IMG/VR virus record: IMGVR_UViG_3300042934_000306
DNA: 17,540 nt
Reading direction: 5' to 3' (one strand)
From: a virus
Taxonomy: Duplodnaviria; Heunggongvirae; Uroviricota; Caudoviricetes
Below, one piece after another: positions 613-15,880 of this stretch. The translations under genes and the position numbers were made by a program. The stretch's first letter is position 1; the number at the start of each line of letters is the position of its first letter. The notes beneath the pieces were generated by a model. The model searched no databases. It was not told the DNA's origin and worked only from the letters and a program-made list of their open reading frames with translations.

Positions 613-1088
613 CAAACAAAATTGACTATCAAAAGCTTCGTGAAATTGCTGAAAAAACAAAAATTGCTGGTGAAGCGCCTGTAATGCCTTTCGATCAGCG
701 AATTAATGCGCTTAACGATTTTATGAAGCACTTTTCGCCAGATATCGCGTTGGCATTATTGGATGAAGTTAAACGCCTGGAAGACACAAATATCGATGCT
801 ATGTGCCGAATTGCAGAGGTGGAGGCGCGGGAAATAAAACCAGCCAAAGGCGAAGTTCTTGTCGTTGTCTCTGGTTTTACTGGTTGCGGGAAAAGCGCCA
901 TTGCCGGGGAAATAGAAATTGCGATGAAAGCTATTGGCGTGCCGGTTCAATGGACTAATGGCGATGCAGAAAAGCATATGACCGGCGCTGACTGGCTGAC
1001 AGCGATTGAGATGTACAAACCAACTGTGCGCATCGTGGAAGTTAATGTGCCACGCGCCGCTGGCATTCGCATCAAAGAAGGTGAGTAA
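609..1088 (+). CDS. hypothetical phage protein (159 aa), possibly Ead/Ea22-like
   Basis: ATG at 609 overlaps upstream stop; uninterrupted 159-codon ORF; no motif recognised with certainty. Confidence 0.5.
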   Translation: MTNKIDYQKLREIAEKTKIAGEAPVMPFDQRINALNDFMKHFSPDIALALLDEVKRLEDTNIDAMCRIAEVEAREIKPAKGEVLVVVSGFTGCGKSAIAGEIEIAMKAIGVPVQWTNGDAEKHMTGADWLTAIEMYKPTVRIVEVNVPRAAGIRIKEGE

Positions 1089-1264
1089 TGCGTGTGGCAT
1101 GTATCGGCTTGTTACCGTACCCGACTCGTTTTTGGGCTTCTGCGCTAATTGCAAAGCCACATGTCCTGATGGCTGACAACATCATCCCGGCACCAAAGCG
1201 CCGCCATACCGGTATTGCAGCGGCACGACGAGCAGCAAAGAGACGCAGGAGAGCAAAGCGATGA
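1088..1264 (+). CDS. small basic protein (58 aa), Arg/Lys-rich C-terminus
   Basis: ATG at 1088 overlaps upstream TAA (TAATG); translated by hand as MRVACIGLLPYPTRFW...RRAAKRRRRAKR; stop TGA overlaps next ATG at 1261. Not in the supplied track (under 60 aa). Confidence 0.25.
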   Translation: MRVACIGLLPYPTRFWASALIAKPHVLMADNIIPAPKRRHTGIAAARRAAKRRRRAKR

Positions 1265-1437
1265 AAAACCGTAAGGCAAAACGACTTTTTTTACAGCGAC
1301 CTGTGCGTGTGGTGGAGCTGGTTATTAGCAACCATAAGATAGCGGTACTCCATCCATTTGGTCAGGTGGCTTTTGCCGCAAAGCGTAAGCCTACTGCGTC
1401 ACAGAACAGGCGGAAGAAAGGGTACGCAGTAAGATGA
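1261..1437 (+). CDS. small basic protein (58 aa), MKNRKAK N-terminus
   Basis: Hand-translated MKNRKAKRLFLQRPVRVVELVISNHKIAVLHPFGQVAFAAKRKPTASQNRRKKGYAVR; ATGA overlap at both ends; paralogous ends with the 1434..1622 ORF. Confidence 0.3.
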   Translation: MKNRKAKRLFLQRPVRVVELVISNHKIAVLHPFGQVAFAAKRKPTASQNRRKKGYAVR

Positions 1438-1622
1438 AAAACCGTAAAGCAAAGATTCTGTTAGTTCGTAGAAACGCTCCTGGCGTCTGGCAGTGGGTGA
1501 GACTCAGCAACCGACGGATGGGGTTGATGAAATATTACGGGATGATGGATTGTGGTTTTTGCAAAAAGCCCAGCGCGGCGCAAAACCGCTGGAGAAACCA
1601 TTTGCGCACTAAAGGAGAGTGA
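1434..1622 (+). CDS. small basic protein (62 aa), MKNRKAK N-terminus
   Basis: Track ORF MKNRKAKILLVRR...AQNRWRNHLRTKGE; its 3' end carries AAGGAGAG, the SD for the next gene. Confidence 0.35.
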   Translation: MKNRKAKILLVRRNAPGVWQWVRLSNRRMGLMKYYGMMDCGFCKKPSAAQNRWRNHLRTKGE

Positions 1623-1623
1623 T

Positions 1624-1833
1624 ATGGCTATTGCCGCAAGTTACACCATGCATCTCTATTGTGACTGCCGCCAGTGTACGGAAGGTGTATATCCAGTGCC
1701 AGACTTCGGTGAGTATATCGGTACGTCATGGTCTGGTTGTGCAAAAGAGGCCCGTAAAGACGGGTGGCGAATAAGTAAAGACAAAACACGTGCTTTTGCG
1801 CCCGGGCATAAAGTTTTGAGGATTAACAAATGA
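1624..1833 (+). CDS. small Cys-rich protein (69 aa), possible zinc-binding
   Basis: ATG 1624 preceded by AAGGAGAG at 1611..1618; MAIAASYTMHLYCDCRQCTEG...; stop overlaps DUF551 start (ATGA). Confidence 0.5.
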   Translation: MAIAASYTMHLYCDCRQCTEGVYPVPDFGEYIGTSWSGCAKEARKDGWRISKDKTRAFAPGHKVLRINK

Positions 1834-2435
1834 CCACTATTACCAGAGAACAGGCACAGAAAATTATTGAAGCAGCCGATGAGGTTATTAGTGCGCTGGC
1901 CGGAACTAATGAGGATGTTCACCCTGGTAGCGATAACATGCTACGTCTGTGGGATGACCTGAATGACCGTCACGCGCCCCCTGAAGTTGTGCGTGAGTTG
2001 GCACGAATTGTGCTGGCATCGCTGGAAGCAGAGCCTGTAAGCCAAACTTACAACTTGCCAGAATTAATCGAAGGCATGGAAGTTTCCATTGATGTAAGCA
2101 CTTGTGATGCTGATTTAGGTAATCGCTATTTCGGCACCGTCACCGAGGCGTTAGAACTTGATACAGCCAAGAATGGTTACATCCTCCTGGTTCAGGACGC
2201 AGAGCCAAACTTCGATGTAAATGGCAACTCTCCGGTAACTCCGGATGGTTGGATAAGCTGTAGTGAGCGAATGCCCCCTCAAGATGATTGGATTTTAATT
2301 TATTCAAAGCACGGCGAGTATATGGCAGGACAGGTACAAGGGGAATACGTGGAGTTGAGCGACGGCACTTTATCGTGGTTAGGGAACGCCTTGTTCTGGA
2401 TGCCGCTACCAGAACCGCCGCAGGAGGCGAAATGA
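1830..2435 (+). CDS. DUF551-like phage protein
   Basis: C-terminal W-rich segment (DGWISCSERMPPQDDWILIY...) typical of DUF551 proteins in lambdoid early regions; assignment from memory. Confidence 0.65.
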   Translation: MTTITREQAQKIIEAADEVISALAGTNEDVHPGSDNMLRLWDDLNDRHAPPEVVRELARIVLASLEAEPVSQTYNLPELIEGMEVSIDVSTCDADLGNRYFGTVTEALELDTAKNGYILLVQDAEPNFDVNGNSPVTPDGWISCSERMPPQDDWILIYSKHGEYMAGQVQGEYVELSDGTLSWLGNALFWMPLPEPPQEAK

Positions 2436-2692
2436 TGGATGTAAAAGAGAAGGTTTTGCAGGTGATGCGTTCCCGGGCTGCCCTGCAAGATAAAGCTCTC
2501 GGCGGGGAATATCCATTCAGGATGGCAACCTGGAATCTGCGGTTGGCAATGGAGAAGGCATTTCCTGATGAAGAATGGCGTTCGGCAGATTTGCGCAAAA
2601 TTCTTATGGAGCTGGCTAAAGACGGAACAGTATCCAAAGATACCCATGCCAGCCGGATTGGTCAGGCGGTATGGAGACTGGAGGTGAGGTAA
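2432..2692 (+). CDS. hypothetical protein (about 86 aa)
   Basis: ATGATG at 2432/2435 after GGAGG at 2423..2427, overlapping the upstream TGA; the track ORF 2288..2692 start is in-frame but overlaps the upstream gene. Confidence 0.5.
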   Translation: MMDVKEKVLQVMRSRAALQDKALGGEYPFRMATWNLRLAMEKAFPDEEWRSADLRKILMELAKDGTVSKDTHASRIGQAVWRLEVR

Positions 2693-2973
2693 TGGCTAAC
2701 CTGCAACTTGCCGTTAAAGGTGAATACTTCGATGCCATGATTCGCGGGGAGAAAACGGAAGAGTATCGCCTGTGTAATGACTACTGGAATAAGCGCCTCG
2801 TTAACCGTAAGTATTACCGCCTGATTATCACAAAGGGATATCCGAAGCGCAAAGACTTCAGTCGCAGAATTGACGTCCCGTATAACGGATATGAAATAAA
2901 AACAATCACACATCCACACTTCGGTGATAAACCGGTAAAGGTGTTCGCGATAAAAGTGAAGATTAATAGCTAA
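2692..2973 (+). CDS. ASCH-domain-like protein (93 aa)
   Basis: ATG 2692 after GGAGGTGAGG, TAATG overlap with upstream stop; N-terminus MANLQLAVKGEYFDAMIRGEKTEEYR resembles the ASCH/PUA-like signature. Confidence 0.45.
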   Translation: MANLQLAVKGEYFDAMIRGEKTEEYRLCNDYWNKRLVNRKYYRLIITKGYPKRKDFSRRIDVPYNGYEIKTITHPHFGDKPVKVFAIKVKINS

Positions 2974-2996
2974 ATTTCAATTAACACGGAGTAATT

Positions 2997-3290
2997 ATGT
3001 GGCGCGGTAATAATCATGGCGGAAGTCAGATGATACTTACCGAATATACGTTCGACCACAAAACCAATAAATCACGTTCAGTATATTTGCTTCGGCACAA
3101 TAGCCGCGTAAGAAATACCGTTCTGGAGCAAAATCTGACCGTTGAAATGGATAATTTGGGAAACTTCAAGCCAACAATATCGCTTGATGATTTTCCGTGT
3201 GGTTTAAGCGAAAGAGAAGCAATGCTGAAATTAGCAGAATGGTTACAAAGATTGAGCATTGCTATTGAAGATAACTGGATTCAACCATAA
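2997..3290 (+). CDS. hypothetical protein (97 aa)
   Basis: ORF with GGAG five nt upstream of ATG 2997. Confidence 0.45.
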   Translation: MWRGNNHGGSQMILTEYTFDHKTNKSRSVYLLRHNSRVRNTVLEQNLTVEMDNLGNFKPTISLDDFPCGLSEREAMLKLAEWLQRLSIAIEDNWIQP

Positions 3291-3314
3291 TGAAAAACAG
3301 AAAGAAAGATTGCT

Positions 3315-3524
3315 ATGGCAACATTTAGTAAATTCGCAGTAATTATTATTTTATTAATTCCCCTCACTGTTACAGCAGGGGAACAGCAACATTGCACAAA
3401 AGAGAATGAACACCCTTTCATCGTTATTCAATGCGATGACGGAACGGTGACTGTGGTTAATGTAAGAAATGACCGTGTAGCTGTTTGCCGTAAAGGCGAA
3501 CCATGCAAGGAAATAAAACTATGA
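3315..3524 (+). CDS. small secreted or periplasmic protein (69 aa), signal-peptide-like N-terminus, 4 Cys
   Basis: MATFSKFAVIIILLIPLTVTAGEQQ... hydrophobic leader followed by a Cys-containing mature part; stop overlaps next start (ATGA). Confidence 0.5.
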   Translation: MATFSKFAVIIILLIPLTVTAGEQQHCTKENEHPFIVIQCDDGTVTVVNVRNDRVAVCRKGEPCKEIKL

Positions 3525-4270
3525 CAAGAATCACTAAAGAGCGTATTTCAGATATTATTTCCCGTATCGAAATGTATGGTCACGGTGCTGGATACACAGC
3601 AGATGAAGTATTGGAGCTTGCCAAAATAGCTTTAGCGCCTTGCAAGGATGGTAAAGCTATGACACTGATTGACTTGTTAGTGAAGGAATTATCTAAGGGG
3701 CGTGGATGGCCTGATGGAAAAGATTTTTGCCATCTATCCATTACGATGCCAGGTAGTAGTCGCGCTACGGTTCTTTTTGGTACGCGCCATAAAAATTACC
3801 AATCATCAAAGAATTATTCCATTGATGGCATTATTTGCGATATCAGTGACCTTGATCGCAGTGCGTTTACATCGGTTGTCACTCGTGAACAGTATGAAGC
3901 AGCTCGCATAGCGTCTCAGAAAGTTAAGTCTGAAAGTAAGGCTTACAAGTTAGATTTTGAGCAATGGCTGGAACAGCAACGCGGGAAAATCGATGTGGAC
4001 TGCGGTTGTGTGTCTGCGGAAACATTCATGCACTGGTTGCGGGTAGCTTATGAGGCTGGGAACCATCCGGATTTTCCGGATAGTTCCCAACAAGCGCCCA
4101 GGAAAAGCGTAAAAACCACTCTGGAAAGAGGCTATCTTGAGGCCGCATTAAAGATTAAGCCGGGCCATACACTAGGCGTCATTGATGCCATGTTGGTTCA
4201 TGAAATGGCGAAGGCTTTATTGCCGCTGGTGGCTGATAAACATGAGGCGGACCATGCCAACGAAAGCTGA
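3521..4270 (+). CDS. hypothetical phage protein (249 aa)
   Basis: ATG 3521 with AGGA upstream and ATGA coupling to the preceding ORF; the alternative in-frame ATG at 3503 would overlap the previous gene by 22 nt. Confidence 0.6.
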   Translation: MTRITKERISDIISRIEMYGHGAGYTADEVLELAKIALAPCKDGKAMTLIDLLVKELSKGRGWPDGKDFCHLSITMPGSSRATVLFGTRHKNYQSSKNYSIDGIICDISDLDRSAFTSVVTREQYEAARIASQKVKSESKAYKLDFEQWLEQQRGKIDVDCGCVSAETFMHWLRVAYEAGNHPDFPDSSQQAPRKSVKTTLERGYLEAALKIKPGHTLGVIDAMLVHEMAKALLPLVADKHEADHANES

Positions 4271-4538
4271 GTTACAGGCGCGCATAGAGATTCTTGAAAA
4301 AGAGAATGCGAGTCTAAAAGGAATGCTGGCGCGGGCGGAAAGGGAATTATCAGGCAAATTATTGCCAGAAGAGCTGCCACCAGCAGATATACCTGATCGA
4401 GTGTCCTGGTGGATGAAGTATTTCCGTGCACCGTGGGAGGCGTTTTGGTGCTACGACCATCGCAGATGGTGTGATGAGCTTGATAGCAGTTTCCCCTATT
4501 TTGCGGAAGGGAACTCTTGCCCTGAATGTAGGAGTTAA
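4254..4538 (+). CDS. hypothetical coiled-coil protein (94 aa)
   Basis: ATG 4254 after GAGG; the track ORF from 4182 overlaps the upstream gene; heptad-like AELQARIEILEKENASLKGMLARAEREL. Confidence 0.45.
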   Translation: MPTKAELQARIEILEKENASLKGMLARAERELSGKLLPEELPPADIPDRVSWWMKYFRAPWEAFWCYDHRRWCDELDSSFPYFAEGNSCPECRS

Positions 4539-4586
4539 TGATGACCGGCGATAACGCGTTTGCACCAAAGGTGTCTCTTTAATGTA

Positions 4587-4606
4587 TACTGTATAAATGA
4601 ACAGTA
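4587..4606 (+). promoter_or_regulatory. LexA (SOS) box TACTGTATAAATGAACAGTA overlapping a TATAAA -10-like hexamer, 20 bp upstream of humD
   Basis: Exact CTGT-N8-ACAG with the flanking TA..TA of the enterobacterial consensus, read directly from the sequence. Confidence 0.8.
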
Positions 4607-4625
4607 TTATTGAGGTGAAAACGCT

Positions 4626-5015
4626 ATGGGCTTCCCTTCTCCTGCGGCGGACTATGTTGAAAGCAGAATTTCTCTTGATCAGCAACTAATCAGGCATCCA
4701 TCAGCGACATACTTCATGCGGGCGGCAGACAGCCATCACCGTGAGGGAATATTGCAGGGTGCTTTGCTGGTGGTTGATTCTTCGCTTACTCCAGTTGATG
4801 GTTCGCTGCTTGTGTGCGCTATGGAGGGTGAATATCGCATAAAGAGATACCGAAAGTATCCGCGCCAGCACCTGGAGGATTTAAGCACCGGGAAGAAAGA
4901 GGCGTTACCAGTAGATGACGATGGTTACACGGGTAGTAATGCTGTTTTTGGTGTGATCACTCATGTCATCAATGATGCCCGAAGTGGGGAGTTTGATGAT
5001 TGTCCGGTCATTTAA
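4626..5015 (+). CDS. humD: UmuD-prime-like protein (HumD-type), lacks the cleavable N-terminal tail
   Basis: Starts MGFPSPAADYVESRISLDQQLIRHPSATYF, aligning to UmuD from Gly25 (the RecA-mediated cleavage product); GAGGTGA SD; sits immediately upstream of phd-doc as in P1. Confidence 0.8.
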   Translation: MGFPSPAADYVESRISLDQQLIRHPSATYFMRAADSHHREGILQGALLVVDSSLTPVDGSLLVCAMEGEYRIKRYRKYPRQHLEDLSTGKKEALPVDDDGYTGSNAVFGVITHVINDARSGEFDDCPVI

Positions 5016-5056
5016 GCTGCAAAGTGCTGGTGCTTTATGCCTGTGAAGTTTATGAT

Positions 5057-5078
5057 TGTGTACACATAACGAGTACAC
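5057..5078 (+). promoter_or_regulatory. putative Phd/Doc operator: TGTGTACACA palindrome plus GAGTACAC half-repeat just upstream of phd
   Basis: Perfect 10-bp palindrome 5057..5066 and a related 8-mer 5071..5078 ending 10 nt before the phd ATG; matches what I recall of the P1 phd operator. Confidence 0.45.
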
Positions 5079-5087
5079 GAGGTGTTT

Positions 5088-5309
5088 ATGCAGTCCATTA
5101 ACTTCCGTACCGCGCGCGGCAACCTTTCTGAATTGCTCAACAATGTTGAAGCCGGGGAAGAGGTTGAAATCACCCGCAGAGGCCGTGAACCAGCAGTAAT
5201 TGTCAGCAAGGCTACTTTCGAAGCCTACAAAAAGGCGGCGCTGGATGCTGAATTTGCATCCCTGTTTGACACCCTGGACTCCACCAACAAGGAACTGGTT
5301 AACCGATAA
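5088..5309 (+). CDS. phd: Phd antitoxin (prevent-host-death)
   Basis: [73 protein letters not shown] is near-identical to P1 Phd as I remember it; 73 aa; stop overlaps doc ATG. Confidence 0.9.
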
Positions 5310-5689
5310 TGAGGCATATATCACCGGAAGAACTTATTGCGCTTCATGATGCGAATATAAGCCGCTACGGCGGCCTGCCGGGAATGTCAGATCCGGGTAG
5401 GGCAGAGGCCATTATCGGGAGAGTTCAGGCCAGAGTTGCCTACGAAGAGATCACCGACCTTTTCGAAGTCTCCGCAACCTACCTGGTGGCTACTGCGAGA
5501 GGGCATATATTCAATGATGCCAATAAGCGTACCGCGCTAAACAGTGCGCTGCTATTTCTACGCCGTAACGGTATACAGGTATATGATTCTCCCGTGCTGG
5601 TGGAACTTGCGGTGGGGGCTGCAACTGGTGAAATCCCCGTATCTTCAGTAGCGGAAAAACTACGTGAACTATATGGTTCCAATATTTGA
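5309..5689 (+). CDS. doc: Doc toxin (death-on-curing, Fic-fold kinase)
   Basis: [40 protein letters not shown]... matches P1 Doc; includes the [11 protein letters not shown] Fic-like motif; 126 aa. Confidence 0.9.
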
Positions 5690-10810: not shown

Positions 10811-10842
10811 TAACTTTAAATAATGCCAATTATTTAAAGTTA
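10811..10842. other. rox-type recombination site: TAACTTTAAATAAT-GCCA-ATTATTTAAAGTTA (perfect 14-bp inverted repeats, 4-bp asymmetric spacer)
   Basis: Read directly; lies 153 bp upstream of the recombinase start; identical to the rox sequence as I recall it from phage D6. Confidence 0.8.
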
Positions 10843-11052: not shown

Positions 11053-12090
11053 ATGAGTAAGAAGTCGATCGAGAAAGAGTACAAACGGTTCCTGCAAACC
11101 GCTGAACGGTGGAAAGAGCTGGTGGTCGCAAACTCTGTTTTCCATGATACCAGTTATGCTGGCGAGGAATTCCGCCATGTTGCATTAACGCATGACCAAA
11201 ACATATTAGAAGAAGCTGAAAAATGTCTTGCTGAATGGAAAGCCTTCGTTGACATGTGTCGCGATGCCGACGGCAAAGCGTCGAACATTGTTGAGTCTGT
11301 ATATTCTCCGATCCCATTCATCATTGAGGACACCAATCAAAGCACGCATGTTGTTGTGCAAAGCGCTACAACAACACGTACATTTACACGTGAACAATTG
11401 CTCAAAAAATACGACAAAATCATAAAGAAAAGCCTGAAAAATAGGGTTTTTTCTCAAATCGTAGGTGCTCTTGAAGAAGAACAGCGCTTCTTTGAAGCTG
11501 AGCCTGAAGGCGAGATCTACCGGGCGCGTAAAGAGGCATATACAGATGTTGTGCTGACAACAAACATCGAAGGCAGCAATGCCCTTTCTCGCTTTAGAGT
11601 TGGCGCACATGGCGCATTGGTTTTCGCAAGGCTACCGAAGACAACGATCCCCGTTGTCAATAATGTTGGTGAACGCCGGAGCATTACAATTTATTCTGGC
11701 GTCGAATCGGTACCTTGCAGCCTTCTCGGCGATTTTAACTTATATCGTGTTCGTGACCTGGAAAAACACCAGCCAAGCTACGTTGCGAAGTCGTACATCT
11801 TAAGGAACATCGATATTCGCAATGAAAGCCTTAAGCAGAAATCCGCTAAGATGCTGGAGGATGCCGATCCGGCTATTCGCCATATCATTGAGCGTAAGAT
11901 ACGTACATCACGTGAAGCAATGGCAAGGCTGGATAAAATGGATCTGGAATTGTTAGACGTAATGATGGCCTCTGGAGACGACCTGACCGGCATTAAACTG
12001 AATGAAGCTCGTAAAAAATACGGCAAAGCAATCGAAGAACGTTACGGATACACATTCCCCCAAACGCAGTACGCCGCGAAGCTCTGGTAA
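11053..12090 (+). CDS. hypothetical protein (345 aa) at the position P1 uses for its c1 immunity operon
   Basis: AGGA SD before ATG 11053; transcribed from the rox side towards pacB; no HTH or similarity to C1 that I can recognise. Confidence 0.6.
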   Translation: MSKKSIEKEYKRFLQTAERWKELVVANSVFHDTSYAGEEFRHVALTHDQNILEEAEKCLAEWKAFVDMCRDADGKASNIVESVYSPIPFIIEDTNQSTHVVVQSATTTRTFTREQLLKKYDKIIKKSLKNRVFSQIVGALEEEQRFFEAEPEGEIYRARKEAYTDVVLTTNIEGSNALSRFRVGAHGALVFARLPKTTIPVVNNVGERRSITIYSGVESVPCSLLGDFNLYRVRDLEKHQPSYVAKSYILRNIDIRNESLKQKSAKMLEDADPAIRHIIERKIRTSREAMARLDKMDLELLDVMMASGDDLTGIKLNEARKKYGKAIEERYGYTFPQTQYAAKLW

Positions 12091-12098
12091 TCACAACT

Positions 12099-12116
12099 GG
12101 CCCCGCATCGCGGGGC
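12099..12116. terminator. GC-rich hairpin GGCCCCGC..GCGGGGC followed by TTTATATAT, between convergent 345-aa gene and pacB
   Basis: 6-7 bp GC stem read from the sequence; U-rich tail on the plus strand. Confidence 0.4.
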
Positions 12117-12117
12117 T

Positions 12118-13626
12118 TTATATATCCAGATCTGGCATTTCGATATCCGCCAGAACCTGATCTCGGAAAGTTGCCATTTCGGCACCAATATCTTCATTAG
12201 CAGGCACATAGTCCACCAGCATAGTGAAGCAGTAGGTATCCCATCGGTCAGGCGATTTGATGTTTAGCTTTTGCCGCATGTGCTCTTTGCGCATCATCGC
12301 CATTTTCCCTTCCTCATTCAGTAAAAAGGGGATTTTTGACGCTTGCTCTGCCGTTTTAGGGTCACTGTCTATCCGCATACGCCCTGACTTTATGGCATCA
12401 CGCGCCATAATATTTGCGTAGGCACGCTGATTAACAAATCGCTCCCTGTCTTTGTTCGCAAACATGGGTTTTCCCCACCGAATACGTACCGGGTTCGCAC
12501 CACGACGCACCAACTGCGCACACGTATCAGAACCAAAACCATCGGCATCAACCGCGATTGTTATATTCGGGTATTTTTCCGGCGTACATTCGTTATATAT
12601 GAAGTCAGCAAAGGCCAATGGGTCCATAGTGCCAGGCATCTCCATTACCTTAAAGTTAACAACGCGCCGCTTATCCCTGTGACCAGATACCTTGCAGATG
12701 TTGAGGACCGACTTATCTCGCCCATTACCAACGTCAGCCGTTGCCACCCATCCCCAGTTTTTCTCCAACAACACCTTGCGGCGAGCTGCGCGATCGCATT
12801 CATCACGACCAAGCAAATAGCCGTTAATTTCTCGTGGGAACTGACCAAGCACCTTGACCATGTACTCAATAGAATCGCGCCCGCCATATTCCAGAAGCTT
12901 CTGCTTGATGAATTGTGGTGTGACGAACGGTGATTCTTCCGAGTTAAGAACAATTGCTGTCCAGATCCCTTTCGGGTTGTCTGGGGTTTTTGCTTGAGAA
13001 TGGTGCGAATCGTAGAAATAACCACTTGGCCTTGTTGGCTGGGATAGCATCAACATCCGGTTATCTTCTTCAGTAAGAGCACCGGTCATTACGCCGATCG
13101 CCTTATCAGATATACCAGATGCTTCATCCAGAATTAGAAGCAAATGTGCCGCATGTTCCCCCGCCAGCGCTTCTTCGTTGCCGAGTCGATAACCTTTGCA
13201 GAGAACTTCCCAAATCCCCTTACGGGAGCGCTCATAAAACATGGTGTCAGAGAGGACAAAATAGGTCTGCAACCACCCATGACGCTTAACTGCATTCGCC
13301 CAATACTGTTTAACGTATTTGAATACGCCTGTTTTTACCTGGCCTATCTTGTTAGCAACAATGATGACACGGGCATCGGGGAACAGGATCATAAAAATCA
13401 ACAGCAACATCGCGGTAAGGGACGACTTCCCCGTTCCGTGTCCGGACGTGACGGTCGTCCTACTCCCCGTTTCCTGCACTGACTGAATGATCTGCTGCTG
13501 CTGGTGGGAGGGGAACATCCCAAAAATATCGACAACAGCCTGGGTAAAGTTGTAGCGGTATTTGATTACCATATCGCGCCAGCGTGGATCGCTGGTGACG
13601 CATTTAATCTTGCGCCCGCCAGCCAT
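12118..13626 (-). CDS. pacB: terminase large subunit (PacB-like)
   Basis: 502 aa; Walker A SGHGTGKSS, Walker B LLLILDEASG, C-terminal Asp-rich nuclease-like region (ATADVGNGRD, AVDADGFG); GGAGGA SD; TAATG coupling to pacA. Confidence 0.85.
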   Translation of the reverse strand: MAGGRKIKCVTSDPRWRDMVIKYRYNFTQAVVDIFGMFPSHQQQQIIQSVQETGSRTTVTSGHGTGKSSLTAMLLLIFMILFPDARVIIVANKIGQVKTGVFKYVKQYWANAVKRHGWLQTYFVLSDTMFYERSRKGIWEVLCKGYRLGNEEALAGEHAAHLLLILDEASGISDKAIGVMTGALTEEDNRMLMLSQPTRPSGYFYDSHHSQAKTPDNPKGIWTAIVLNSEESPFVTPQFIKQKLLEYGGRDSIEYMVKVLGQFPREINGYLLGRDECDRAARRKVLLEKNWGWVATADVGNGRDKSVLNICKVSGHRDKRRVVNFKVMEMPGTMDPLAFADFIYNECTPEKYPNITIAVDADGFGSDTCAQLVRRGANPVRIRWGKPMFANKDRERFVNQRAYANIMARDAIKSGRMRIDSDPKTAEQASKIPFLLNEEGKMAMMRKEHMRQKLNIKSPDRWDTYCFTMLVDYVPANEDIGAEMATFRDQVLADIEMPDLDI

Positions 13627-14990
13627 TAATCATCCTCCGGCGGTTCTATCGCGATATCATCATCTCCGGCGTCATACCCTGCATCAGATGCATCATAATC
13701 ACCGTAAATTTCAGCCGTTGCCGAAGGGTCAATATCCAGCTCTTCGTCGTTGGCCTCGAATTCTCCAGCTTTACGCTCGCCATTGCGGTCGTAATCTCCG
13801 CACCCCAATTCTTCAACAATGGTTGCCACATCCGCCCGGCGCTCTGCCAGCCATTGCGGATGGTTAGCCTGAAGCGTTGCAAACTCCCTTGCCTCTTTGT
13901 CCAGCTGTTCATCATCAACATCATTGACGTCAGAAACAGGTGTTTCGAGAAGAGTGATAGCTTTCGCCGCGCGCGCCGCGAGGATAGCCGGGACGCTGAC
14001 CCCCTGGCGCTCGATGTATTCAGCAACACCGATATCATCCAGTTCCTCGCGCTCACGCATACGTATAGCGGCGGCGATAACTCTGGCAGCGCGTGCGTCA
14101 GCGCCAATGCGATATTCAATCTCTTTGCCACGCTGTTCGGCCTGTAGGCGTGCTAATTCGAGTTTTTCTCTGGCCTCAGCCTCTTTGAATGCTTGCTGGC
14201 GAGCGCTCTGACGAAGCTTTTCATCCCCCTGTCGCAGCTTTTGTTCGGACTGATATATAGCTGCCAACCTACTGATAAAATCATTCATGTAGTAGGCCGC
14301 GTCACTGATTAGACCGAGAAGGCGCTGCCCAGGGTGCATTCCTTCTGGCTCTTTATCGCCCAAGGCGTCTATTTCCGCCTGTAGACGTTCGGCCTCCTGA
14401 TCAACAATGCTTTGATACTGAAGTGCGCGCTCTTGCGCCATTTGAATTGCTAACCGCAGGTGTTCTTCTGCGCCGTTCTTCATCATATCGCGAGCCACAT
14501 TCGTAGTGGGCAATGTGGCACGCTGCACAGCACCGCCAGGGATCATTGCTGAAGATCCCTCAATTTTTGGGGCGCTTTTATCTTCTTCGGGGATCATTTT
14601 CGCCATTTTTTCGCGCAATGATCTCCTGACAGATTCTTTTATCTCATTGTTATTATTTGCATTATTTTCATGATCCGAAGTTTTCTTTCTCGGCATACTT
14701 CGGAAAGAACCTGCGCCCTGCGAATTGTCAATTTCTGTAAATTTTGTTTTTTCTGCACCCTCTTCCAGCTTTTTTGTTGCTCTTCCCGCCCGTTTTTTTT
14801 CAGGTGATTTGGTGCTTTTTTTTGTTGTCTTTACCTGCGACCGCACCTCATTTTTTTTCATATTGAGATGCTTTCTGGCTGTATTGAAGCTAAGGCCATG
14901 CTCCTCACAGTATTCCTTTACAGTGATCCCTTTTTCTTCACGCAACGCTATAAAGCGGGCGCGGTGCTCCTCCCAATTAACCAGACTCAT
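13626..14990 (-). CDS. pacA: terminase small subunit / pac-recognition protein (PacA-like)
   Basis: Immediately upstream of and coupled to pacB; N-terminal HTH-like segment (ITVKEYCEEHGLSFNTARKHL), long coiled-coil middle, acidic C-terminus; GATC cluster inside the 5' coding region as in P1 pac. Confidence 0.65.
   Translation of the reverse strand: MSLVNWEEHRARFIALREEKGITVKEYCEEHGLSFNTARKHLNMKKNEVRSQVKTTKKSTKSPEKKRAGRATKKLEEGAEKTKFTEIDNSQGAGSFRSMPRKKTSDHENNANNNNEIKESVRRSLREKMAKMIPEEDKSAPKIEGSSAMIPGGAVQRATLPTTNVARDMMKNGAEEHLRLAIQMAQERALQYQSIVDQEAERLQAEIDALGDKEPEGMHPGQRLLGLISDAAYYMNDFISRLAAIYQSEQKLRQGDEKLRQSARQQAFKEAEAREKLELARLQAEQRGKEIEYRIGADARAARVIAAAIRMREREELDDIGVAEYIERQGVSVPAILAARAAKAITLLETPVSDVNDVDDEQLDKEAREFATLQANHPQWLAERRADVATIVEELGCGDYDRNGERKAGEFEANDEELDIDPSATAEIYGDYDASDAGYDAGDDDIAIEPPEDD
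14541..14675. other. candidate pac site: five Dam (GATC) sites, mostly in TGATCC/GGATCA context, within 135 bp of the pacA 5' coding region
   Basis: GATC at 14541, 14555, 14592, 14620, 14672 flanking an AT-rich core; P1 pac is a cluster of TGATCA/G hexamers inside pacA. Confidence 0.4.
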
Positions 14991-15379
14991 AAAGCAACAC
15001 CACGCTTTTTAACGGCGGCATTCCACAGCTTATTCGCCATGTCCACCAGCTCTCGTTGCTCTTTTCGCGCCTGTTCGACTGATTTCCTGCTACAGTTTTT
15101 AACCAGTAAGCTACCGTATTCAGGCGTGCGCCCGCGCACCTTGAACTGATATCCGTTCAGACCATGTAGCCAGTATTTTCGTGGATACACACGATCATCC
15201 AGCTCACAGATTGCCCTGCTTGAACGAACAAAATGACGAATGATGTTAGTTACACTTACTCGTGAAACATGGAGATGAGGGTATTTTTCTTTGGCGAGAG
15301 TGGTAATTTCAGTGACTGTCAGATAGCAGTCAGCCCTGATCATGATATCCGCAATTTCTGCGCTGCTGATTTGTTCCAT
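14987..15379 (-). CDS. putative late-promoter activator (Lpa-like), HTH-containing (130 aa)
   Basis: Sits directly upstream of pacA with ATGA overlap, the position of lpa in P1; HTH-like LTVTEITTLAKEKYPHLHVSRVSVTNIIRHF. Name by synteny only. Confidence 0.4.
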   Translation of the reverse strand: MEQISSAEIADIMIRADCYLTVTEITTLAKEKYPHLHVSRVSVTNIIRHFVRSSRAICELDDRVYPRKYWLHGLNGYQFKVRGRTPEYGSLLVKNCSRKSVEQARKEQRELVDMANKLWNAAVKKRGVAL

Positions 15380-15487
15380 TAATCCCCCGGGCAGGAAATG
15401 ACCGAGGGGATGATAATGAGAATGTTAAAACTGTATAGACTGGTAAAAAGATGATTATATTAGAAAATTAATATTAAACACCTAACG

Positions 15488-15880
15488 CTACCAGCGAGAC
15501 AAACGAACAACATGTTTCACTTTTGCGATCCACTTTCCGCGATAACTATTGATTACGGCCTGTGCCAGCTTCAAATTGGCTTCAAAATCAGCCTTACTAC
15601 CATCAGACTCCACCAGCATTCCTCCATCTATTTCTGGTAAACATAGATAATCCTGCTCAACCTGCAGCGGCATTGATGGCTCTCTGAATGGCGTTACTTG
15701 CTCTGCTTTCCAGCGAAATCTAACCCTCATCCCCCTGGTGGTCATTACTAGATAGCCTGTTATAGTGCTTTTATGGCCCACATCAGTACGCGTGGCATTG
15801 CATGACACGATCTTACAGTTAGCGATAGACCACTCCATATTGGTGGCCTGTTGAGTGCTTAATTTGGTAGTCCCGTACAT
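15488..15880 (-). CDS. hypothetical protein (130 aa)
   Basis: GGGAGG SD 7 nt before ATG 15880; ATGA overlap with the upstream gene. Confidence 0.5.
   Translation of the reverse strand: MYGTTKLSTQQATNMEWSIANCKIVSCNATRTDVGHKSTITGYLVMTTRGMRVRFRWKAEQVTPFREPSMPLQVEQDYLCLPEIDGGMLVESDGSKADFEANLKLAQAVINSYRGKWIAKVKHVVRLSRW

Follow-up and report, generated by a model that had tools for sequence, protein, structure and literature searches.

The 17,540-bp stretch of viral DNA analysed here (IMG/VR record IMGVR_UViG_3300042934_000306, referred to below as the window) is 99.9% identical over its whole length to a 92.6-kb Salmonella enterica plasmid, a D6-like plasmid prophage. Its region 12000–15500 shares 99.3% identity with Escherichia phage D6 (AY753669, MF356679), whose records name the genes here pacB, pacA, lpa, and c1. 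Judged from these matches, the window is a D6-like plasmid prophage. The gene order—lpa-pacA-pacB-c1-rox-dre—is P1-like, and pacA contains a cluster of five GATC sites that quite probably serves this D6-type P1-like phage-plasmid as its pac site, the signal at which packaging is initiated. This interpretation draws on gene identity and synteny, on the position of the cluster and its conservation, and on the presence of comparable arrays throughout the PacA family; the number of GATC sites adds little. Coordinates of the features are shown in Table 1.

Table 1. Candidate pac elements and neighbouring features, in window coordinates (nt, nucleotide position in pacA).
Feature	Coordinates	Strand	GATC	Details
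pacA	13626–14990	-		1365-nt open reading frame, 454 aa; small-terminase-like pacase subunit; contains the candidate site
Element 1	14670–14677	+	14672 (nt 316)	ATGATCCG on + strand, CGGATCAT on coding strand; nt 314–321
Element 2	14618–14625	+	14620 (nt 368)	ATGATCTC on + strand, GAGATCAT on coding strand; nt 366–373
Element 3	14590–14597	-	14592 (nt 396)	ATGATCCC on coding strand; nt 394–401
Element 4	14552–14559	+	14554 (nt 434)	AAGATCCC on + strand, GGGATCTT on coding strand; nt 432–439
Element 5	14539–14546	-	14541 (nt 447)	ATGATCCC on coding strand, exact consensus octamer; nt 445–452
AT-rich spacer	14626–14669			44 bp between elements 1 and 2, 25% GC; putative pac cleavage region
Possible sixth, distal element	14923–14930	+	(nt 63)	GTGATCCC on + strand, GGGATCAC on coding strand; nt 61–68
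Weak candidate site for integration host factor (IHF)	14640–14652	-		TAACAATGAGATA; two mismatches to WATCAANNNNTTR; resembles the annotated P1 IHF site AAACAAAGAGTTA
pacB	12118–13626	-		Large terminase / pacase B subunit, 502 aa; large-terminase PHROG matches
lpa	14987–15379	-		Overlaps the pacA start by 4 nt
c1	11053–12090			
rox	10811–10842	+		Dre recombinase target, between dre and c1; exact 32-bp match

The GATC elements of pacA

The five GATC sites lie within 135 bp (14541–14675) at nt 316–450 of pacA, inside the 5′ third of the gene, where a preliminary description of this DNA had placed them. The GATC density, on which that description let its proposal depend, exceeds the gene background, with five sites in the 135 bp of the cluster and two in the remaining 1230 bp of pacA. 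The sites were also said to be embedded in TGATCC/GGATCA hexamers, which is so for three of the five (on the + strand, GGATCA at 14540–14545 and 14591–14596 and TGATCC at 14671–14676); the other two are one-base variants (AGATCC at 14553–14558 and TGATCT at 14619–14624). An AT-rich core flanked by the sites is present as well, but the flanking is asymmetric, with one element on one side and four on the other.

All five sites are copies of a single oriented octamer, ATGATCCC/GGGATCAT, each with the Dam target GATC, and the consensus is (A)TGATCC(C), with the TGATCT and AGATCC variants. On the pacA coding strand the ATGATCCC orientations of elements 1 to 5 are minus, minus, plus, minus, and plus. 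A repeat scan pairs element 2 with element 3, and element 4 with element 5, as inverted repeats whose octamers are 20 and 5 bp apart, respectively. The layout is 1 + 4—a single element and two inverted pairs—spanning 139 bp overall, with a GATC-to-GATC gap of 52 bp between elements 1 and 2. Elements of the same orientation are separated by 52 bp (elements 1 and 2) or 51 bp (elements 3 and 5, a direct repeat), about five helical turns. The AT-rich spacer holds a partly conserved ATAACA core. Of the five copies in L005, a sister lineage, four match the octamer perfectly.

The window contains 51 GATC sites in its 17,540 bp, slightly fewer than the 64 given by dinucleotide shuffles, and at least four GATC sites per 135 bp are found nowhere else either in the window or in the whole 91,159-bp D6 genome. 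The scan-statistic probability of at least five GATC sites clustering in this way somewhere in the window is 0.023 with a uniform null and 0.046 with a first-order Markov null. The GATC count by itself is thus weak evidence, and the significance of the cluster comes from its conservation.

For this purpose pacA sequences were gathered from plasmids, IMG/VR, GTDB genomes, and metagenomes, with 26 unique D6-clade genes available for codon comparison. GATC is present at exactly nt 63, 316, 368, 396, 434, and 447 in D6-clade lineages at 92–100%, 73–74%, and 66–68% PacA identity. The linker at nt 130–520 is the fastest-evolving part of pacA, with about 64% nucleotide identity compared with 71–81% downstream. 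Across the 68–74% lineages only 55 of 388 linker tetramers (14%) are invariant, as against all five of the GATC sites (hypergeometric P about 5e-5), and the longest invariant runs in the linker are the GATC-containing blocks, that of element 3 being AAATGATCCC.

The codons that make up the elements are informative. Elements 2 and 4 each overlap a codon that is either AGA (Arg) or GGA (Gly), such that the amino acid switches and the GATC stays; the codon that follows is TCA at element 2 and TCT or TCA at element 4. Element 1 is preceded by a codon for Ser (TCG), Ala (GCG), or Glu (GAG), ending in G every time, and this is followed by an invariant GAT and then by CAT or CAC. The codons ATG ATC of element 5 are invariant in all 26 unique genes while neighbouring codons vary, and the Ile codon of element 3 is ATC in 25 of the 26, the single exception being ACC. 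The third positions of Pro, His, Ser, and Thr codons just outside GATC vary freely, and among the amino-acid-invariant degenerate codons of pacA only 29% are also codon-invariant. Because flanking codons, and even amino acids, change while GATC remains fixed, these comparisons support a constraint on the five GATC sites in the D6 clade that acts at the level of DNA rather than of protein.

Selection on the protein would provide a different account, in which the GATC sites are a by-product of conserved PacA linker peptides (D-H; G/R-S-L/F, twice; M-I-P, twice). The five elements do fall on short islands of peptide sequence found repeatedly in the linker, conserved islands devoid of GATC (F-T-x-x-D and F-R-x-M-P) lie nearby, and the possible sixth element is inside a protein-invariant G-I-T motif. 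We nonetheless consider this account very unlikely, given that nucleotides are fixed where amino acids change (the Arg/Gly codons at two elements and the G-ending Ser, Ala, and Glu codons), that synonymous positions are frozen inside GATC and variable just outside it, and that arrays persist across PacA clades despite wholly different frames and peptides. Moreover, synonymous recoding of the P1 hexamers harms packaging, with phage titre reduced about 9-fold, and such elements therefore act as DNA in P1 (PMC10028697).

A clustering of functionless GATC sites by chance, to which the scan statistics would leave room (P 0.02–0.05 window-wide and 0.30 genome-wide), has next to no probability once conservation is taken into account. 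The positions are identical in all of the D6-clade genes examined bar two variants that have each lost one site, their conservation within a fast-evolving linker has the P of about 5e-5 given above, and GATC enrichment recurs in most of the PacA clades examined. At the level of sequence comparison, conservation effectively refutes the chance explanation.

The octamer at nt 61–68, which precedes element 1 in the gene by 253 bp, is the only further match with no more than one mismatch anywhere in the 1365-nt pacA, and could form a distal arm of the site. Its codons GGG ATC are fixed in all 26 unique D6-clade genes and are followed by a variable codon (ACT, ACC, or ACG); other clades write the same Gly-Ile as GGC ATT, GGT ATC, or GGG ATA. 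The evidence for this sixth element is weak, since the motif is conserved in the protein (G-I-T).

Several other features of the region were considered and set aside. An inverted repeat beyond element 5 (14490–14501 and 14512–14523) is not kept in other lineages, and a repeat present twice (CTTTTATCT) has no conservation across lineages. TGTCAG occurs both in the cleavage region of P1 and in the spacer of D6, but other D6-clade lineages do not conserve it, and it is regarded as a coincidence. Contig ends were also considered as a proxy for physical DNA ends. In IMG isolate genome 2537562191, one contig ends (L056) and another starts (L045) inside the AT-rich gap beside element 1, at nt 320–329 of pacA (window 14662–14671), with 10 nt in common (ATGAAAATAA). 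However, several Pantoea-type metagenome contigs (L126, L132–L134, and L142) break in or beside GATC arrays at scattered positions; for this reason the proxy was rejected, and assembly artefacts at repeats are the better explanation of the breaks.

Relationship to P1 pac and to other PacA clades

The P1 pac site is the textbook example of a methylation-gated packaging signal and is an element used for building P1 phagemids for DNA delivery. The gene in which the D6 cluster lies is a pacA homologue, as the preliminary description had assumed: its product matches phrog_1711 ('terminase') with an E-value of 1e-183, and it is annotated as pacA in D6. No Pfam family was matched by PacA. The D6-type and P1 PacA proteins are only 21% identical (pairwise E-value 5e-10), and a tblastn search of 50,697 phage records with D6-type PacA did not retrieve P1 at E≤1e-5; we regard the two as homologous because of the pairwise alignment together with PHROG membership and synteny. 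A survey of P1-like phage-plasmids describes a second subgroup that encodes homologues of pacB only (PMC7969092), and if this subgroup corresponds to the D6-like group, D6-type PacA may be too diverged for such screens.

In P1, the RefSeq record places an IHF site and staggered cleavage points at nt 256–285 of pacA, with cleavage at about nt 276–285, and hexamers on either side of these at nt 195–229 and 325–348; the site as a whole spans nt 195–376 of its pacA. PacA and PacB of P1 cut inside the site, and the resulting termini are scattered over roughly one helical turn. P1 pac is described as 161 bp (161/162) with seven TGATCA/G repeats, and the pacase binds to the hemimethylated site whereas full methylation promotes cleavage (PMC10028697). 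The D6 cluster occupies the same segment of pacA as the mapped P1 hexamers and cleavage points, and the likeness in place that had been proposed is thus borne out. In both phages the candidate or known site is in the 5′ third of pacA within an lpa-pacA-pacB-c1-recombination-site module, and consists of an array of short GATC repeats over about 140–160 bp. Both phages carry a gene for a Dam-family methylase—in D6 a D12-class N6-adenine methylase (PF02086, E-value 2e-56) encoded outside the window—and in both a recombination site is on the pacB side of pac, with lox about 4.0 kb away in P1 and rox 3.7 kb from the GATC cluster, beyond pacB and c1, in D6.

The differences are equally clear, and those in hexamer sequence and in spacing had been anticipated correctly. 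The D6 repeat (ATGATCCC/GGGATCAT) is asymmetric and oriented, whereas that of P1 is TGATCA/G; the D6 cluster contains no TGATCR, and TGATCC/GGATCA does not occur in P1 pac. P1 has a 4 + 3 arrangement around about 90 bp, whereas D6 has five elements (possibly six) arranged 1 + 4 around the 44-bp AT-rich gap. In D6 the consensus scan also gave no good IHF match, only the two-mismatch candidate at 14640–14652. In P1 an intergenic region of about 85 bp with the late promoter LPpac separates lpa from pacA; in D6 the two genes overlap by 4 nt (ATGA, 14987–14990) with no intergenic late promoter, and pacA in D6-like phages accordingly looks to be translationally coupled to lpa.

Location of a packaging signal inside or beside the gene of the protein that recognises it is also familiar from P22 (gene 3) and from SPP1 (pacL-pacC-pacR), and in SPP1 binding repeats flank the cleavage region. 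To our knowledge, GATC and Dam play no part in either of these sites, and the small terminases of P22 and SPP1 have no sequence relationship with PacA.

Arrays of GATC elements are present in most of the PacA clades examined, P1 included, and occur in Enterobacter, Pantoea, Serratia, Citrobacter, and Leclercia plasmids as well as in IMG/VR contigs. Representatives of 16 clades were compared, and in 14 of them GATC is enriched at nt 130–480 of pacA at P<0.05, the exceptions being L012 and L063. These clades share with D6 the same segment of pacA and the same GATC core. Between clades the elements sit in differing frames and encode differing peptides, so that what stays constant is the DNA motif. 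The usual layout is bipartite and P1-like, with a left array, a GATC-free spacer of 80–199 bp, and a right array; most clades keep this arrangement, whereas the D6 clade has a single gap. The left array is often strictly periodic at 12 bp, with up to seven copies in a Pantoea clade. Most clades use tGATCa, and the asymmetric GGGATCAT/ATGATCCC form is found in the D6 clade, in an Enterobacter outgroup with 55% identity (L009/L053), and in the 34%-identity L057 clade.

A codon alignment equates D6 elements 2–5 with the right array of the Enterobacter lineage, and element 5 is kept even in that 55%-identity lineage. Element 1 is absent from it and is for this reason regarded as specific to the D6 clade, and D6 has a Lys-rich stretch, also rich in A-tracts, where the left array would be. 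On these alignments the 1 + 4 layout of D6 is a derived, compact version of the site, in which the left array has been lost and element 1 gained.

The periodic arrays also leave their mark on the protein. In L013, L017, L018, and related Pantoea and Enterobacter loci, six to seven TGATCA hexamers are spaced with an exact 12-bp period at nt 154–237 of pacA, which imposes the tetrapeptide repeat x-D-H/Q-x on the linker of PacA—a case of a DNA signal shaping a protein.

Proposed packaging mechanism and alternative readings

By analogy with P1, we infer that cleavage occurs at the cluster, that it is under methylation control, and that its packaging specificity is distinct. PacA together with PacB would bind the octamers, and the DNA would be cut close to them, the likeliest place being the AT-rich gap that separates element 1 from elements 2–5; this gap is our best guess because the P1 cut lies in a GATC-free interval. 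The end on the pacB side would then be packaged by a headful mechanism, proceeding through pacB and c1 towards rox, which would thereby be included in the terminal redundancy of the first headfuls, the position that lox has in P1. Cutting would be gated by the methylation state of the GATC sites, as set by host Dam, by the D12-class adenine methylase of the phage, or by both. As a speculation, the coupling of pacA to lpa without a late promoter implies that the pacase may be made early, which would make a post-replicative methylation gate useful.

A more specific model, to which we give a little less than even credence, is that the D6 clade has a compact, re-engineered pac whose two-armed ancestor lost its left arm and gained a single element, and that its pacase, functionally orthogonal to that of P1, reads ATGATCCC octamers that are oriented and set in a constant 1 + 4 arrangement, perhaps with a loop to the sixth element 253 bp away.

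The role of methylation can be viewed otherwise. The elements could be PacA recognition sites that form pac but in which GATC is simply an inherited recognition core, methylation having no regulatory role in D6; the strong rearrangement of the D6 layout relative to P1 would be compatible with this, as would the overlap of pacA with lpa in place of an intergenic late promoter, since regulation may differ from that of P1. P1 pac is, however, described as methylation-controlled (PMC10028697), and D6 has a Dam-family methylase of its own. Furthermore, GATC is strictly kept in most of the PacA clades examined while the flanks drift, as is expected for a methylatable core. We therefore regard a pac site indifferent to methylation as rather unlikely.

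It is extremely unlikely, in our view, that the cluster is some other Dam- or SeqA-responsive element, origin-like or involved in transcription control, that merely happens to be located in pacA. GATC clusters in AT-rich DNA are present also at Dam-controlled origins such as oriC and P1 oriR. But the replication genes of D6, repL and repA, are located away from the cluster; a scan of 14200–15100 gave nothing promoter-like, and an internal promoter in pacA was rejected; and across many otherwise mosaic phage-plasmid clades the array follows pacA and not the replication genes.

Several observations weigh against the interpretation of the cluster as a pac site. Across the D6 genome a five-GATC cluster arises somewhere in 30% of random placements (P 0.30). 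D6 does not show the hallmark layout of P1, in which a central stretch of about 90 bp separates two arrays, and it is without the left array carried by its closest outgroups. In each of two natural variants (L028 at nt 368 and L051 at nt 396 of pacA) one GATC has become GACC through a nonsynonymous change; this suggests a site that can do without one of its elements, or else prophages in decay. The same linker also has short conserved islands that contain no GATC (TTTACAnAAnnTGACAA and ATGCCG), so such islands are not peculiar to the GATC elements. No match to the IHF consensus WATCAANNNNTTR with one mismatch or fewer is found at nt 100–520 of the window's pacA. Neither of the two D6 GenBank records, which do annotate rox, has a pac annotation, and DNA ends, cleavage, and PacA binding are points that we infer from comparison with P1. 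Full-text literature searches turned up no account of a pac site in D6, although one may stand in the original D6 papers.

As to IHF, only one of the D6-clade representatives scanned (L008) matches the consensus with one mismatch or fewer, and it does so at a different position (nt 325). The consensus match of the TAACAATGAGATA candidate is not conserved in other D6-clade lineages, and we treat it as a lead only; an IHF site is not claimed for the window's pac region, which has no match at that threshold.

Taken as a pac site, the D6 cluster is the homologue of P1 pac that was to be expected; its repeat unit is a different one and its architecture is derived, and no new principle is involved. 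It gives a predicted packaging start for D6-like phage-plasmids, which are widespread in E. coli and Salmonella, and a candidate packaging signal orthogonal to that of P1 which, if this is true, could be used in phagemid delivery systems. The PacA clades also offer a comparative series for the co-evolution of a small terminase with a site embedded in its own gene; if the interpretation is correct, the family constitutes a natural series of co-evolving terminase and pac specificities, with each site inside the gene of its reader.

Outside the pac region, window positions 617–5646 are 95–97% identical to P1-like phages (P1 isolates and RCS47; humD, doc, and their neighbours). The pac-c1-dre part of the window is D6-specific, and the P1-like and D6-like phage-plasmid groups are therefore mosaic here.

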